Assembly (NCBI GenBank): GCA_951406725.2
Contig: OX597814.1
Location: 142,538,001 to 142,602,000 of the forward strand
Origin: Octopus vulgaris
Taxonomy: Eukaryota
Direction of reading: 5' to 3'
Length of the DNA stretch: 64,000 nt
Shown piece by piece: positions 14,346 to 62,337 of the stretch. The position numbers and the translations under genes were made by a program. The notes below the pieces were generated by a model. The model had not been told where the DNA came from, searched no databases, and saw nothing but the letters and a program-made list of their open reading frames with translations. Position 1 is the first letter of the stretch. Each line of letters opens with the position of its first letter.

Positions 14346-14980
14346 AATACTAATATTGAAAATACATTATGGGATATTGATTGTCTTTGTATCAGAGAGA
14401 AGTTTCAGCAGCCATATTTCAAAATCTGGTCTCTGACATTTCCATCTTTGTTCACAGCTCCACTATACGAAATATTTTCATCAATATCAATGCATTGCGT
14501 TGAATTTGGGGTTAATAGAGAGAAACCATTGACGGAATATTTTTGGTTTGGTAAGCAATTTCTCCTCAGTTCGATGTCAATTATAAATGTTTTGGCCCGG
14601 TTCCATCCATATATCAACTGTCATTGTTGTTATAGAATTTGGCTGCTTTTTTAATATTTTAGATTTTTGCGTTGAAGGTCAATTAGATCATTAAAAATGA
14701 GATAATTTATTGCGTTATTGTTTTTTATTGTTTCTTAACCACTGCATATAACTCCTGTACTTATTCTATAAAGACTAATACTTATTCTATCGGTCTCTTT
14801 TGCTGAACCACTAAGATATGGGGACGTAAAAACACCTACACCGGCTGTCAAGCGGGTTGGGGGAACCATCACAGGTACAAAGACACACACGCACTCACAT
14901 AGATACACATTTATTCATATATACATATATAGAACGGGCTTCTTTCAGTTTCATACACGCACACACACATAGATACACAC

Positions 14981-15039
<59 letters not shown>

Positions 15040-15040
<1 letters not shown>

Positions 15041-15268
15041 TTTATTTTAAGCAGCAGAAAATTCAACAAAATCTGTTACTCTGAGTTTCTCGTTGCCGTT
15101 CATCAGACAGTTTTTGCTAGAAAAAACTGTCTGATGAACGGCAACGAGAAACTCAGAGTAACAGATTTTGTTGAATTTTCTGCTGCTTAAAATAAAGCAT
15201 ATTACTCTACCACTGGTATTTCAGTACTCTTTTTTCCACCTTGTTTCACATTTATGTGTTTACTCCGG
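15040..15268 (+). mobile_element. (TA)n-embedded palindromic hammerhead element, family A (PLE-like derivative)
   Basis: 76-bp perfect inverted arms 15040-15115 and 15122-15197, 6-bp spacer, unique tail 15198-15268, (TA)n on both sides. Confidence 0.85.
15127..15164 (+). ncRNA. Type I hammerhead ribozyme motif (mirror copy on - strand at 15073-15110)
   Basis: CUGU-CUGAUGA-A-CG-GCAA-CG-A-GAA-ACUC-A-GAGU-A^ACAG: intact core, stem I CUGU/ACAG, short stem II with GNRA loop, self-complementary stem III, GUA triplet (cut after 15160). Confidence 0.75.
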
Positions 15269-15367
15269 TATATATATATATATATATATATACAACATGC
15301 TTCTTTCAGTTTCCGGCTGTAATCAAAACATACTAGTACAAGGTGTAGACACAGTCTGTGTTTTAAA

Positions 15368-22477: not shown

Positions 22478-22509
<32 letters not shown>

Positions 22510-22510
<1 letters not shown>

Positions 22511-22733
22511 ATTGACCGCTAGCTCCAAAAGATTTTTTATTCTTTCTCTGTTTATTTCCTCGTGTTCGTTTCTGTTGAAGAGTGTAGGCTCGAAACGTAA
22601 AAGATTTTCTCACCTTCCCAAGTGTTACACTAATACACCTGTTTGTTGTTTATACACCTGTTTGTTGTTTATACACCTGTTTGTTGTTTATACACCTGTC
22701 TTCGTCTTATGTTTTTTTCTGTAAATTTTAACT
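22510..22733 (+). mobile_element. PLE-like 3'-end element, family B variant, with variant hammerhead at 22569-22602
   Basis: UUU-CUGUUGA-A-GAGU-GUAG-GCUC-GAAACGUA^AAA (core A6 changed to U); 19-bp tandem ATACACCTGTTTGTTGTTT in the tail; (TA)n both sides; homolog at 50355-50545. Confidence 0.65.
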
Positions 22734-22753
22734 ATATATATATATATATATAT

Positions 22754-22943
22754 GTAGGTCCCGGGTTGATTCGGGGTTAACCACAGTAAATAAGGTACTC
22801 AATACATAGCAGAGTAAAATTAATTTATTATATAGAAGGAGTTCTACAGGACTAGAACTGTTTCATTCAAGAGAAATCTTCAGGAAGCCCTTCCTGAAGA
22901 TTTCTCTTGAATGAAACAGTTCTAGTCCTGTAGAAGCTCCTTC

Positions 22944-22952
<9 letters not shown>
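22754..22952 (-). mobile_element. (TA)n-embedded palindromic hammerhead element, family C copy 1
   Basis: Arms 22826-22887 and 22890-22952 (one 1-nt indel, spacer CC), unique tail 22754-22825; homolog of 52519-52710. Confidence 0.88.
22890..22936 (+). ncRNA. Type I hammerhead ribozyme motif (mirror copy on - strand at 22842-22887)
   Basis: CUUC-CUGAAGA-U-UUC-UCUU-GAA-U-GAA-ACAG-UUCUAGUC-CUGU-A^GAAG: stems I, II and III all present, GUA triplet (cut after 22932). Confidence 0.85.
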
Positions 22953-22981
<29 letters not shown>

Positions 22982-22986
<5 letters not shown>

Positions 22987-23161
22987 ATCCAAACAAGAAA
23001 ACACAGAAAAAAAACAGAAAAAACACAGCAACGCGAGGACGTGGAACAATTAAAGTATTATTTGACGCTCAGGAAAGAAGGGAAGGGGGGTTTAACGTTT
23101 CGAGCGGAGCTCTTCGTCGGAAACAAGGAGAAGGAAAGATCCCAAGAAGGGAAGACAGAGG

Positions 23162-23163
<2 letters not shown>
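22982..23163 (-). mobile_element. PLE-like 3'-end element family B with variant minimal hammerhead at 23090-23124
   Basis: Minus strand GUUU-CCGACGA-A-GAGC-UCC-GCUC-GAAACGUU^AAAC (core U4 changed to C); homologous to 43140-43347; (TA)n both sides. Confidence 0.75.
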
Positions 23164-23992: not shown

Positions 23993-24399
<407 letters not shown>

Positions 24400-39279: not shown

Positions 39280-39544
39280 AGTATATGTATGTTTGTATTA
39301 TATGTGTATATGTATGTATATAAACCTGCCTAGTGAACATGCAAACATGTCAAATTTATCTATTTCTTCGAAGATTGGAAAAAGATGAACTGCTTTAATC
39401 GATTTTCGAGCCATATTAGGATTTCATCAGTGGTTGTTTACATCACTTGAGCAATCTCCGAGAACGAGTTGAAAATTCCTTTATATACCCCATTGTCATC
39501 AAATTGTCATCGGCAGTAGGTCCTGATAAGTTCCCGGGGTGCAA

Positions 39545-39850
39545 TTTGCTATCGACACATCTCCAGGACAGTGGCCGGGAACTTATCAGGACCAACTGCC
39601 GAGTTGTGCTTGATCTTATCTATTCCTGTTAGGATATCAGGAGCACCAAAAATTATGTCAGATATGGTTAGTTGAGGGTTTACATCACTGATACTAGCCA
39701 GATCAACCGCATTAGCGTTACTGAGACAGAACAGTAATGTCTCTGCAGTATCTCGCACATAGATTTTGCATCATCATAGAGTGTTGTTCTCATCAACCAG
39801 AGGACCAACTGTGGAAACAGCGGTTTTATGTTTTTTTGCAAAGAACATTT
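39545..39850 (-). mobile_element. CR1/L2-group LINE ORF2 fragment (linker preceding RT)
   Basis: KTAVSTVGPLVDENN..MCEILQ and IDKIKHNSAVGPDKFPATVLEMC match the K..S.GPD..P..L..C pre-RT motif. Confidence 0.75.
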
Positions 39851-39968
39851 TAGGATTGAGTCTTATTTTCTAAGTTATATGATGTATAAAAACATGTAAT
39901 ATACAAATAAATATCTGTAAATATAAAACCATCCGAATTTCTGAGTCCCTCATTTCTTCTAAAATTTC

Positions 39969-40034
<66 letters not shown>

Positions 40035-40140: not shown

Positions 40141-41342
40141 GTATAGATATTTATGATTTTTTTTTAGATTTTAATTATTTCTGTGGTAAAATAAGCATTT
40201 CTCGCCTAAAAATTAATGAATTAATAAATAAGAATAGACTACGGTAATGCATTGTATAACACATTAATAAAGTACATTAAAAGAAAATACGTCGTGTACC
40301 ATAAATAAGTAAACAAAGAATCGCACATACTGTATGGAAAGCGGAACTCGGGTGGCGAGTGTGTGGTATTGCTTTGCATTTATAATAAAATAAATGTATA
40401 CAAATTATAAATATAATTTTAGAATATGTGCGGCCATGCTGGAGCACCTCCTTTAGACGAAGAAGTCGACCGCAAGACATTCTTTGTAAGCCTAGTACTT
40501 ATTCTATCGGTGTCTTTGTCTTTGTTCCCCCAACATCGCTTGACAACCGATGCTGGTGTGTTTACATCCCCGTAACTTAGTGGTTCGGTGAAAGAGACCG
40601 ATAGAATAAGTACTAGATTTACAAAGAATAAGTCCTGGGGTCGATTTGCTCGACTAAAGTTGGTGCTCCTGCATGACCACAATCAAATGCCTGAAACAAG
40701 TAAAAGAGTAAAGAGTATATATATATATAATATCAAAGGGAAATGGAATTTAATTAAAGTTAAAACATTCAATCAAAAATTACATTTCCAGATGTCCAAC
40801 CCCTTAAAAAAATTTTAGTCAAAAAGACTATATATTAGTCATACAAAATAGTGTATATTAAAATACATAGAGAATCCACTTATAGGGATTCTACGCGCTA
40901 GAAAGAACAGCTAAGTTCTATAACCAGCAAAAATTGGGGATAAAATTCGACAGGAATAGATTTGGAAACTAAAAACATTTACCGTCTAGATTCCTGGACC
41001 AATTGGTTTCTAATCTTCTTTTAGTGAGTCATAGAGATCTTACAAGGTCTGATTTTCGTCAACTGTTGACGGTGTATTGTAGTCAACGAATGGTCTGCAC
41101 CTGCTCAGAATAAATTTGAAAAGTTAGGTCGTATGTACACTGGGCAGATAACCTATTTTGTCTCGTGTAGATAGGTTGGTTCTTTAAGATATCGTACCCA
41201 ACGTTATTTTCATATTTCATGTTGTTTACTTTTTGTGACGTCCTGTACCCATACATGCATACCTATATTCATACATATGTATGTACATATATGTGTGTAT
41301 ATATGCATATATATATATACATTATTTATATTATAGAACGCC

Positions 41343-41817: not shown

Positions 41818-41854
<37 letters not shown>

Positions 41855-41950
41855 TCCAATAAATGACGGGAAGGAAAGGTTGTTTTACGTTTCGAGCATA
41901 GCCATTCTTCAGAAATAGAAGACAGAGGAAAGTCCAAGAGAAAAGGAAGA
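41855..41950 (-). mobile_element. Family B fragment with degenerate hammerhead at 41883-41915
   Basis: Minus strand UUU-CUGAAGA-AUGGC-UAU-GCUC-GAAACGUA^AAAC; stem II partly disrupted. Confidence 0.6.
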
Positions 41951-54553: not shown

Positions 54554-55025
54554 CAGTCATAATGATTTCGATGAACATTAAGATGTCTAATTTATTCATG
54601 CAATAAAAATAAGTCGGTCGCGACAGATCTATACAGTAACACAAGTATAGTTATGTGTCACAAACAACGGAATTCGAATGTTGAGCAATACAGCAATTCG
54701 ACAATTCAATACATGACAAAACCAGCGGCAATTAAATAATGAAATGAGAAAATTATGTAAAGTCATACAAGTTCATCTTTGAAAAACATAGAAGACTTCT
54801 TAAGAATACAAGTTTTAAATAGCGTCAAAGTTCACGAATTCACACAAAAGTCTGTGAAGAAATTACAGTAATAAACTATCTTTTAAACAATAATTTAACA
54901 TGATTTTCGTCAGTGTGAAAGATCCTCTTATCACAATGTGTATGTATTCAGTGTGAACTGCTAACTATGTATGTGGAGGTACGTTCATTTCATTATGTGC
55001 ATGTATTGGAAAACAAATCATAATA

Positions 55026-56020
55026 TGTGTGTGTGGTGATATCATGAATGCGTGTGGTGATATCATGAATGTGTGTGGGGTGACATCATGAATGTGTGTG
55101 GTGATATTATGAATGCGTGTGGGGATATCATGAACGTGTGTGGTGATATCATGAATGTGTGAGGAGTGATATCATGAATGCGTGGGTGGTGATATCATGA
55201 ATGTATGTGTGGCGATATCATGAATGTGTGTGTGGTGATATCATGAATGTGTGTGGTGATATCATGAATGTGTGAGGAGTGATATCATGAATGCGTGGGT
55301 GGTGATATCATGAATGTATGTGTGGCGATATCATGAATGTGTGTGTGGTGATATCACGAATGTGTGTTTGGTGATATCATGAATGTGTGTGTGGTGATAT
55401 CACGTATGTATGTGTGGTGATATCATGAATGCGTGTGTGGTGGTATCATGAATGCGTGTGTGGTGATATAATGAATGTGTGTGTGGTGATATCATGAATG
55501 TGTGAGGAGTGATAACATGAATGTGTGTGTGGTGATATCATGAATGTGTGTGGTGATATCATGAATGCGGGTGTGATGATATTATGAATGTGTGTATGGT
55601 GATATCATGAATGCGTGTGTGGTGATATCGTGAATGTGTGTGTGGCGATATCATGAATGTGTGTGTGATGATATCATGAATATGTGTGAGGTGATATCAT
55701 GAATGTGTGTGTGGTGATATCATGAATGTGTGTGTGGTGGTATCATGAATGCGTGTGTGGTGATATTATGAATGTGCGTGGGATGCTACCATGAATGTGT
55801 GTGTGGTGATATCATGAATGTGTGTGTGGTGATATCATGAGAGTGTGTGTGTGGTGATATCATGAATGTATATGTGGGGAATCATTAATGCGTGTGTGGT
55901 GATATCATGAATGTGTGTGTGGTGATATGAATGTGTGTGGGTTGATATCATGAATGTGTGCGTGGTGATATCATGAATGTATGTGTGGTGATATCATGAA
56001 TGTGTGTGGAGTGATATCAT
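55026..56020. repeat. Minisatellite, unit about 23 bp (GTGATATCATGAATGTGTGTGTG), roughly 44 copies
   Basis: Directly visible; unit length varies (mostly 21-23 bp) with TG number. Confidence 0.95.
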
Positions 56021-56060: not shown

Positions 56061-56293
56061 ATACTTTATCTGTTGGTTAACAAGGCTACCATCGGTTTCA
56101 TACCAAGGGAAATTTTCTCAGTAATTTTCAAGCCTGCCACATGGAACACTGCTACTCGTCCCCATCTTGGATGGAATTCTTATCCAAGATGGTGACCAAT
56201 ACTAGTGTCCCATATATCAGACTTGATAAGTGGCGAGAAATTTTACCATTGCACGAAGCTAACGGTAGCCTTGTTAACCCACAAATAAAGAAT
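56061..56293. repeat. About 230-bp imperfect whole-length palindrome (foldback/MITE-like)
   Basis: GGTTAACAAGGCTACC/GGTAGCCTTGTTAACC outer and CCATCTTGGAT/ATCCAAGATGG inner arms. Confidence 0.82.
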
Positions 56294-59748: not shown

Positions 59749-60357
59749 CAGTAGTTTTATTTTTATAGCGTGCTTTCACTTCATTACCGAGCGCAGCTCT
59801 GTGTGCCTTGGGTATGTGCTGTGATTTGTTGTGATGCTCTGATGGTTATTGTATGGAAAGTGTTCAGCGTAGGATGTGTGCAGTGCCTAGTAGTGCAATT
59901 TTCTGTATGTTATATGTGTTTGTAAGTCCTGGTGTTTTTGTTATGTATTTGTCTGAATATTTTTTTATCATGCCTAATGCACCTATGATAGGTATCGTTT
60001 CTGTTTTTAGATTCCACATTCTGGTTACCTCTATTTCCAGGTCTTTGTATTTTGAAAGTTTCTCCATTTCTTTTAGAGACACGTTGTCATCTGCCGGTAT
60101 TGATACATCAATTAGAAAGCATTTTTTTTCTTCATGATCTCTGACAACTATATCTGGTCTGTTGGCCTTAATTTCTCTATCTGTGTGTATCGGCATATCC
60201 CAGAGTATGGTTGCTTTCTCGTTTTCTGTGACCTTTTCTGGTGTGCGCCTATACCATCTTTTTTCTGTTGTTATTCTATAATGTTGGCATAGCTTCCAGT
60301 ATATGTAGGTTCCAACTCTGTCATGTCTGTGAATATATTCCTTCTTAGCCAGGACTA
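59749..60357 (-). mobile_element. 5'-truncated R4/Dong-like non-LTR retrotransposon (RLE domain) inserted in (TAA)n
   Basis: Open frame 59864-60357: YIHRHDRVG..WKLC..ILWD..IKANRPDIVV..CFLIDVSIPADDNVSLKEMEKLSKYKDL..IIGALG, a PD..D-type restriction-like endonuclease; (TAA)n on both sides. Confidence 0.92.
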
Positions 60358-60386
60358 ATAATTTATTATTATTATTATTATTAATA

Positions 60387-60444
<58 letters not shown>

Positions 60445-61909: not shown

Positions 61910-61962
61910 CTCTCTCTCTCTCTCCCTCTCCCTTAATTTATGTTCTGTTTTTGCCTTAAAGC

Positions 61963-62158
61963 AAATACGACGTTGGAAGCCTAATTAATTGATGTATAAA
62001 TCCCGAGATAGCGTCTCTGACAAACGTACAGTGTCTTTAAAAAATCACAGAAATATATTGCTACTTATATATTTCTGTATCTTTTAACACTGTACGTCTA
62101 TAAGAGATGGTACCTCCGGACATATACCGCAGTTAATTCGGCTTTCAACGTTGGATCT
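61963..62158. repeat. About 195-bp imperfect whole-length palindrome (foldback/MITE-like)
   Basis: ACGTTGGAAGCC/GGCTTTCAACGT, ACGTACAGTGT/ACACTGTACGT, ACAGAAATATA/TATATTTCTGT. Confidence 0.8.
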
Positions 62159-62337
62159 ACCTTAAGTATGATATGCAGAATGCTAATTTAAACTAATACT
62201 GTTTCTGGCGCACATAAAGATTTTTTTTTCTGTTCTTATCGCATACTAGAATTCAAATTGTTTGTCTCTAATTTACATTATTTACATTTGACGGATATTT
62301 GTCCGAGTTCGATTCCAGGCAGTGACCTGAATAATAA

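Follow-up and report, generated by a model that had tools for sequence, protein, structure and literature searches.

Insertions of Penelope-like elements (PLEs) with an adjacent, inverted and 5'-truncated copy and a tail have been described, and the accessible text of the same work states that the way in which tandem and inverted PLE structures form is still unresolved (PMC8557442). The PLEs of the Hydra clade insert in (TA)n and carry a sense hammerhead ribozyme near their 3' end (PMC8557442). The published account of the inversion is self-priming on an antisense template (PMC3846280). Hammerhead pairs on opposite strands, 100-700 bp apart, have already been noted (PMC4209133). A PLE protein studied in vitro cuts its target on both strands, extends both of them and uses uncleaved RNA, and two internal reverse-transcription start sites bound the tail (PMC11167929). 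In the accessible part of that report the tail is explained, and we found no discussion of inverted insertions.

We analysed a window of 64,000 nucleotides from Octopus vulgaris (contig OX597814.1), which contains a small palindromic element, here called family A, between two (TA)n tracts. Its features, in the coordinates of the window, are as follows.

14987..15039, left (TA)n target tract, 53 nt
15040..15118, minus strand, short arm, an inverted copy of 15119-15197
15073..15110, minus strand, mirror hammerhead, same sequence as the plus copy; the mirror CUGAUGA starts at 15106
15116..15121, head-to-head junction, axis between 15118 and 15119, which is position -12 from C3; single substitution at 15116
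15119..15268, plus strand, long arm, the family A unit of 150 nt
15127..15164, plus strand, minimal type I hammerhead, core at 15131-37, cleavage site after 15160
15127-30/15161-64, plus strand, stem I, 4 bp
within the hammerhead, plus strand, stem II, 2 bp, GCAA loop, A-A mismatch at 10.1/11.1
15148-51, plus strand, GAAA
15151-59, plus strand, stem III, palindromic
15198..15202, plus strand, CATAT, the short 3' end throughout family A
15198..15268, plus strand, tail, on the long arm only, 71 nt
15204..15226, plus strand, probable tail hairpin, by likeness seen by eye and with a relaxed regular expression
15269..15292, right (TA)n target tract, 24 nt

The arms are perfect over 76 bp (15040-15115 and 15122-15197) with a 6-nt spacer between them; the palindrome can alternatively be read as 79-bp arms with one mismatch (G15116/A15121). 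CUGAUGA starts at 15131, 12 nt past the axis. The preliminary description had reported these perfect arms, an axis about 12 nt upstream of CUGAUGA, a tail of about 70 bp on one arm and (TA)n on both sides, and all four hold at the coordinates given above. The element thus comprises a head-to-head, 5'-truncated inverted copy, a tail on one arm and a hammerhead within the repeat, and it lies in (TA)n as do insertions of the Hydra clade. The segments 14885-14952 and 14955-15313, within a SINE-like composite, represent a tandem duplication of ~70 bp that is older than the element. We rejected it as the target duplication of the element, because the element, in (TA)n, interrupts its second copy.

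The architecture is that of known PLE insertions, in which a tail accompanies an inverted, 5'-truncated copy, here shrunk to a stub. We are highly confident that family A represents such a PLE stub, inverted copy included, and its parent is likely to have been a Hydra-type PLE. Hydra-clade PLEs such as Hydra-2_Amil, Penelope-13_HM and Hydra-1_Obim likewise have (TA)n targets, and their sense hammerhead lies about 100-180 nt from the 3' end, as in family A (PMC8557442). By eye, Hydra-2_aMil is identical to family A in stem I (ctgt/acag), stem III (actc-N-gagt) and the cleavage A, and a 5'-truncated inverted copy like that of family A was noted for Penelope-13_HM (PMC8557442). In contrast to the Hydra-clade PLEs described there, family A has no reading frame, and its stem II is shorter with an A-A mismatch. 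The accessible text of PMC8557442 describes neither stub-sized palindromes nor a fixed axis, and the octopus Naiad and Hydra consensus ends examined in its supplement do not contain family A. A Naiad parent was rejected, as there was no motif match in that supplement and the Obim, Ovul and Omin ends differ by eye.

PLE insertions with inverted pLTRs (PMC3846280; PMC8557442 Fig. 2) show the same head-to-head copy with a palindrome at the junction, the tail on one arm and a shorter inverted arm. In contrast to them, family A has no body between the repeats, and its tail, at 71 nt, is longer than their 30-40 nt. The minimal type I hammerheads of PLEs resemble that of family A in their short stem I, palindromic stem III and dimer-type organization, but family A is without their conserved G10.1-C11.1 pair and long helix II, and its two cores are only 24 nt apart (PMC4209133). 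Non-LTR retrozymes are also non-coding and PLE-derived, with a type I hammerhead; they are, however, head-to-tail tandems, whereas family A is a head-to-head pair (bioRxiv 10.64898/2026.07.22.740005). A non-LTR retrozyme was rejected for want of head-to-tail tandem hammerhead units, and a MITE or DNA transposon since the tail is one-sided and the junctions are variable.

The hammerhead of family A has the CUGANGA...GAAA core, the NUH triplet and stems I and III of type I, yet the 10.1-11.1 pair that should close stem II is A-A in this copy. In sequencing run X1, position 11.1 is A, G or U in about 40, 38 and 22% of the depth, respectively. The predicted energies are -0.4 kcal/mol for the monomer and -7.4 kcal/mol for a dimer duplex through stem III, in line with the weak stem II and dimer dependence proposed earlier. 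The minimum free energy fold of a single unit is no better than those of shuffled sequences (z 0.26), and the hammerhead is not formed in it. Rfam gave no match to the hammerhead at gathering scores; at E<=10 only miRNA and snoRNA matches appeared, which are hairpin-driven and below the cut-offs and were rejected. A transcript through the whole element, in either direction, is predicted to fold into a hairpin of about -135 kcal/mol. Since this hairpin would form and the antisense arm would be transcribed first, the mirrored copy is probably silent as a ribozyme. The stub as a whole is probably both sterile and ribozyme-silent, because it is without a promoter and its arms pair together.

Family A is abundant, and its copies end at two fixed points. 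All 16 sampled words of the element are present in run X1, and 20 of the 24 listed runs, under five organism labels, contain at least half of them. In four of the 24 runs, 11641, 4148, 1410 and 228 contigs aligned to the unit; summed contig depths are not copy numbers. Loose ends behind 15202 enter (TA)n in 79, 40 and 13 contigs, so that the end of the short arm at CATAT, first seen in this copy, is family-wide in three runs. In the three non-RNA runs (the RNA nature of run X9 is a guess), 75, 74 and 35 contigs pass from the long end, at about 15265-15268, into (TA)n. Other copies join at 15122-15123. Two lopsided strand switches, 15123/15194 and 15123/15215, occur in one contig each, and another three joints, whose kind is not specified, have an end at 15122, 15122 and 15143. 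The sequence continues upstream from 15117 in 16 and 15 contigs, with a low consensus agreement (0.55-0.71). The C at 15222 is private to this copy, the family having G in 98% of the aligned depth.

In the region 15187-15264, one contig each in runs X1 and X3 jumps back 78 nt, from 15264 to 15187. These returns suggest that one subfamily of family A repeats its tail region head to tail.

The only other perfect palindromes of the window with arms >40 bp are two copies of another family, called family C.

22754..22949, minus strand, family C copy 1, axis 5 nt upstream of CUGA; tail hairpin at 22788-22821
52519..52712, minus strand, family C copy 2, axis 4 nt upstream of CUGA; tail hairpin at 52553-52586

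Among the (TA)n-flanked inserts of 80-700 nt in the window (n=32), a hammerhead core is present in 3/3 palindromic and 1/29 other inserts (Fisher p=8e-4), two of the three palindromes belonging to one family and the regular expression having missed degenerate cores of family B. The expected enrichment of TA-flanked palindromes for hammerhead cores is thus found within the window.

The preliminary description had presented families A and C as unrelated but of the same architecture. The mirrored layout is indeed common to both, although in family C the axis is only 4-5 nt from CUGA and not about 12. Blastn found no similarity between the two families; however, family C has the Hydra tail hairpin, and family A has stem I, stem III and the cleavage triplet of Hydra-2_aMil, so that "unrelated" applies to the nucleotide alignment only. 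The long tails of 11 Hydra-type loci have a bulged hairpin in common, with 96% of cells paired and three pairs changed on both sides, the structure having been derived from the same 11 loci, some of them close kin; as a mark of the Hydra clade, the hairpin is a criterion of our own and not a published one. The top matches in the window of a covariance model built from these 11 tails were family C copy 2 (E 0.003) and copy 1 (E 0.05). The model did not match the tail of this family A copy; with the family G at 15222, the tail has the layout of the Hydra-type hairpin, by eye. In addition, a coding Hydra-type element at locus L121 combines a C-type stem III with the same tail hairpin. Families A and C are therefore probably both Hydra-type ends, as far as these structural likenesses indicate. 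In viral contigs, the general A-type hammerhead pattern gave no match, and the C-type pattern gave 16 matches, which were purine-rich, coding-like and without stem I and were rejected.

A third hammerhead-like family, family B, is present in the window at 43170-43348 (plus strand), 22983-23163 (minus) and about 24113-24290 (minus), and further at about 41854-41952 (minus), 22508-22732 (plus) and about 50370-50545 (plus). It has a bulged base before stem II, and several of its copies adjoin (TA)n; these are probably 3' ends of another PLE clade. The hammerhead ends of family B in the window are never mirrored; hence, a hammerhead alone is not the cause of inversion. A hammerhead-like match at 39430 (minus strand) was rejected, being without stem I and inside a decayed LINE-like fragment (39323-39973, minus) that has an internal inverted repeat at 39510-39602. 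Imperfect MITE-like palindromes (69-79%) of 100-250 bp lie at 43371-43619, 56061-56293, 61955-62166, 52114-52288 and 50607-50702, and no hammerhead core was found in those tested. The window also contains two inverted SINE-like pieces (40429-40681), a near-perfect 41-bp palindrome within a SINE-like copy (42867-42907), a minisatellite with 44 copies of a 23-bp unit (55017-56020) and a tandem pair of a 102-bp unit (51090-51279). A 178-aa frame at 59867-60400 (minus strand) lies beside (TTA)n; its nearest Atlas cluster is "Reverse transcriptase" (0.95), it has no Pfam match above cut-off, and it resembles the endonuclease-bearing end of non-LTR elements of the R4/Dong type.

The exact family A pattern had no match in metagenomes. 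The A-type hammerhead pattern was found there at at least 120 loci, mostly Hydra-clade PLE ends with the layout of family A. Their statistics describe another family in other hosts, not family A; in addition, the search pattern demanded one complete hammerhead, and short-read contigs favour short insertions. Two subfamilies account for 115 of 135 arms among the matches listed, and one of them matches the published Hydra-2_Amil end by eye. In both, the upstream frames end like the Hydra endonuclease, by eye and in comparison with Hydra-2_Amil. At L121, an A-type hammerhead is joined to a 125-aa frame that is 49% identical to the end of a 513-aa PLE frame, which itself has a GIY-YIG match (E 3e-4) below the Pfam cut-off. 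Animal PLE clusters with RT and GIY-YIG frames, at L121-L123, are located in contigs of a bacterial metagenome-assembled genome and represent host contamination. Among the matches listed, the homologous loci carry their hammerheads in mirror image; the short end falls at CATAT or close to it, and the tail measures about 68-70 nt.

Among the matches listed, 32 of the 95 loci examined have an inverted partner arm, and both ends are visible in 19 of them (L114, a duplicate, is counted in the 32 and not in the 19). These 19 loci combine a long and a short 3' end in 17 cases, compared with an expected share of 0.42 (p=3e-5); long+long pairs are absent (0/19), and short+short pairs occur twice (2/19, L022 and L113), again among the matches listed. 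At L022 and L113 the flanks are mirrored too and there is no target duplication, and these two loci are artefacts or products of another process. Target duplications of 10-19 bp flank 14 of the 17 long+short homologues among the matches listed, a few of them in simple sequence. Of 17 lone stubs among the matches listed, eight have the short end, six of them with duplications of 11-15 bp; the short end is thus a priming site in its own right.

Several homologues have arms that cannot be copies of each other, an observation that favours two target-primed cDNAs, both running to the RNA 5' end, over fold-back. The long arm stops at +15 (L018), +104 (L085) and +61 (L098), whereas the short arm reaches -9 to -12, so that in these loci the 5' part of the hammerhead is on the short arm only and the tail on the long arm only. 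At L121, the short arm extends ~570 nt into the frame and the long arm begins at -14. Another insertion of 100 bp in the same contig (L121 3325-3424) has inverted arms that do not overlap. Its short arm starts 4 nt past the hammerhead cleavage site; hence, it may derive from cleaved RNA. Both arms are of the same subtype in 12 of 12 decidable loci of the 17 (among the matches listed), which fits a single RNA or a single source locus.

In LINE-1 twin priming, the two target ends both prime and generate an inversion between target duplications, with arms that do not overlap and a second site that is not fixed. In the mirrored PLE stubs, in contrast, both sites have a fixed position, and the overlap of the arms is usually complete. 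The PAc Poseidon protein in vitro resembles the stub model in its two tail-bounding starts, the extension of both strands and the predicted dimer (PMC11167929). It differs in belonging to another clade and in needing no target homology, whereas the short end of family A has ATA/ATAT in common with the target. The strict long+short pairing is left unexplained by this system, because no strand difference in start site is seen in the accessible part of that report.

We determined where the 5' ends of the arms fall. Of the uncensored arms among the matches listed, 62 of 77 end at -4 to -15 from CUGA, once the 20 of 135 arms from other families and seven duplicates are dropped. A gapped re-run, which leaves out L022, L113, L025, L108 and L050 as well as the duplicate L114, placed 56 of 63 ends at -4 to -16, a rate 24-fold that of -17 to -150 (p=2e-22; among the matches listed). 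Neither the requirement for a whole hammerhead nor the short-contig bias predicts such a step at -16. The modes are -12, -9 and -7 among the matches listed, and the ends at -12 and -9 come after a pyrimidine; transcription start sites typically follow a pyrimidine. A TATA-like motif lies at -36 to -45 in the untruncated copies of 8/8 family representatives, with a shuffle probability of 0.02-0.11 each, the motif window and the representatives having been chosen after inspection, the families being related and the sister copies L050 and L066 being without the strict motif. An extra G precedes nine of the 15 ends at -9, against a background of 0.235 (p=0.003), and 12 of 47 elsewhere (among the matches listed); this excess fits cap copying, and templated filler explains some of it. 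With a TATA-like box ~40 nt upstream, the axis thus suggests a transcription start and not an effect of the ribozyme. In A. vaga, the pLTR itself contains the TATA (PMC3846280), and the internal promoter of D. virilis Penelope is TATA-less (PMC2377424); hence, this reading may be limited to Hydra-type elements.

The explanation that we consider fairly probable is twin target priming, with both cDNAs running down to the RNA 5' end, in the insertion of a minimal, probably Hydra-clade PLE. A TATA-type promoter in the 3' region of the element would start an RNA about 9-12 nt upstream of the hammerhead, and this RNA, uncleaved, would span the hammerhead and the tail hairpin. The PLE protein would make a staggered cut through both strands of an AT-rich target, and both DNA ends would prime: one would use the long start, located 3' of the hairpin, and the other the short start (CATAT), located on its 5' side. 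Within only 80-150 nt, the two cDNAs would reach the RNA 5' end, and end joining would then place them head to head. The long arm (15119..15268) would thus be the cDNA primed at the long, 3' start site and the short arm (15040..15118) that primed at the short, internal site, while the tail length would equal the distance between the two starts. If both cDNAs are joined at the RNA 5' end, the palindrome is made afresh at each insertion, and the axis between 15118 and 15119 is that 5' end. Direct support comes from the anatomy and the two fixed ends of family A and, in the homologues, from the clustering of 5' ends, the long+short pairing, the target duplications and the link to the Hydra endonuclease. 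The start site, the use of a single RNA, the order of events and the assumption that family A behaves like its homologues are inferences.

The mechanism common to families A and C that had been claimed is upheld in that the axis is just upstream of the hammerhead in both. Its proposed nature, fold-back followed by microhomology joining, fares less well. In that scenario, akin to the self-priming proposed in PMC3846280, a cDNA snaps back at the 5' boundary of the hammerhead, copies itself up to CATAT and joins (TA)n by microhomology; we consider it unlikely. It would account for the identical arms of family A, both with the minority alleles (A at 15147, 15165 and 15189), but one RNA predicts identical arms equally well. 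The ATA/ATAT common to short ends and target is in its favour, as is the loose-end consensus upstream of 15117, which would give a short native palindrome at the axis (at the agreement of 0.55-0.71), and a one-sided deletion after insertion could imitate lopsided arms. However, the short end of the homologues primes alone, given the duplications at six of eight lone short-end stubs (among the matches listed), the arms of L018, L085, L098, L121 and L121:3325-3424 each hold unique sequence that cannot have been copied from the other, and many junctions hold filler, up to 28 nt, rather than a loop. Inheritance of the palindrome as a whole, as in a MITE-like or self-propagating hairpin element of fixed structure, is very improbable and largely refuted. 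The outer ends are the same across copies and the layouts of the two family C copies are alike, as it predicts, but the centres vary (between these two copies, and with gaps of -8 to +28 in the homologues), both arms within a copy share variants, only one arm has a tail, and the same ends also occur in lone, lopsided and frame-bearing forms. As to an assembly or library fold-back artefact, chimeras do yield palindromes, and L022 and L113 look so; the unmirrored flanks and one-sided tail of the family A copy, the presence of all sampled words in run X1 and the recurrence of the family ends in three runs from three studies make it extremely improbable here.

A further alternative keeps twin priming but lets the ribozyme or RNA processing set the 5' boundary, by stalling of the reverse transcriptase at a folded or protein-bound hammerhead or, for example, by splicing. 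The distance tied to CUGA in families A and C and in the homologues fits this proposal, and so does an intron of D. virilis that ends at the 5' end of helix I (PMC4209133). The inferred upstream ends of family A are also pyrimidine-rich with AG at -12/-11, at low agreement; homologues without AG at that place speak against splicing. Structure stalls of reverse transcriptases fall before a helix, whereas the modes at -9 and -12 are 5-8 nt beyond stem I. A capped start would account for the TATA spacing and the extra G, and the family B hammerhead ends of the window are unmirrored and extend at least 45 nt upstream. We therefore regard a boundary set by the ribozyme or by processing as quite improbable, and the ribozyme cause that had been claimed for the axis gives way to its coincidence with a probable transcription start in the homologues, according to TATA spacing and 5' ends.

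Twin target priming might reflect a general rule of Hydra-type PLEs, to which we give an even chance: a protein dimer would prime both target ends on one capped RNA, always with a long and a short start. These starts would flank the conserved tail hairpin, and both cDNAs would stop at the transcription start 9-12 nt upstream of the hammerhead, the cap being sometimes copied as G. In a literature search outside most subscription papers and Repbase, no earlier work turned up that states the pairing of long with short ends, describes the tail hairpin or reads the axis as a start site. Self-priming on an antisense template, as far as it is set out in the accessible part of PMC3846280, does not fit the lopsided copies found in the homologues.

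The family A element is an ordinary product of a known class, and its value lies in the mechanism. Such stubs give predictions that can be counted: a long end paired with a short one, a 5' end at a fixed place, a G derived from the cap, and a hairpin in the tail. The model accounts for the many genomic hammerheads that sit in sterile, self-paired copies. If the general rule is true, it would supplant the antisense self-priming model, and it alone would produce inverted pLTRs, tails and the solo hammerhead stubs that abound in animal genomes. The axes would then map PLE promoters from genome sequence alone.
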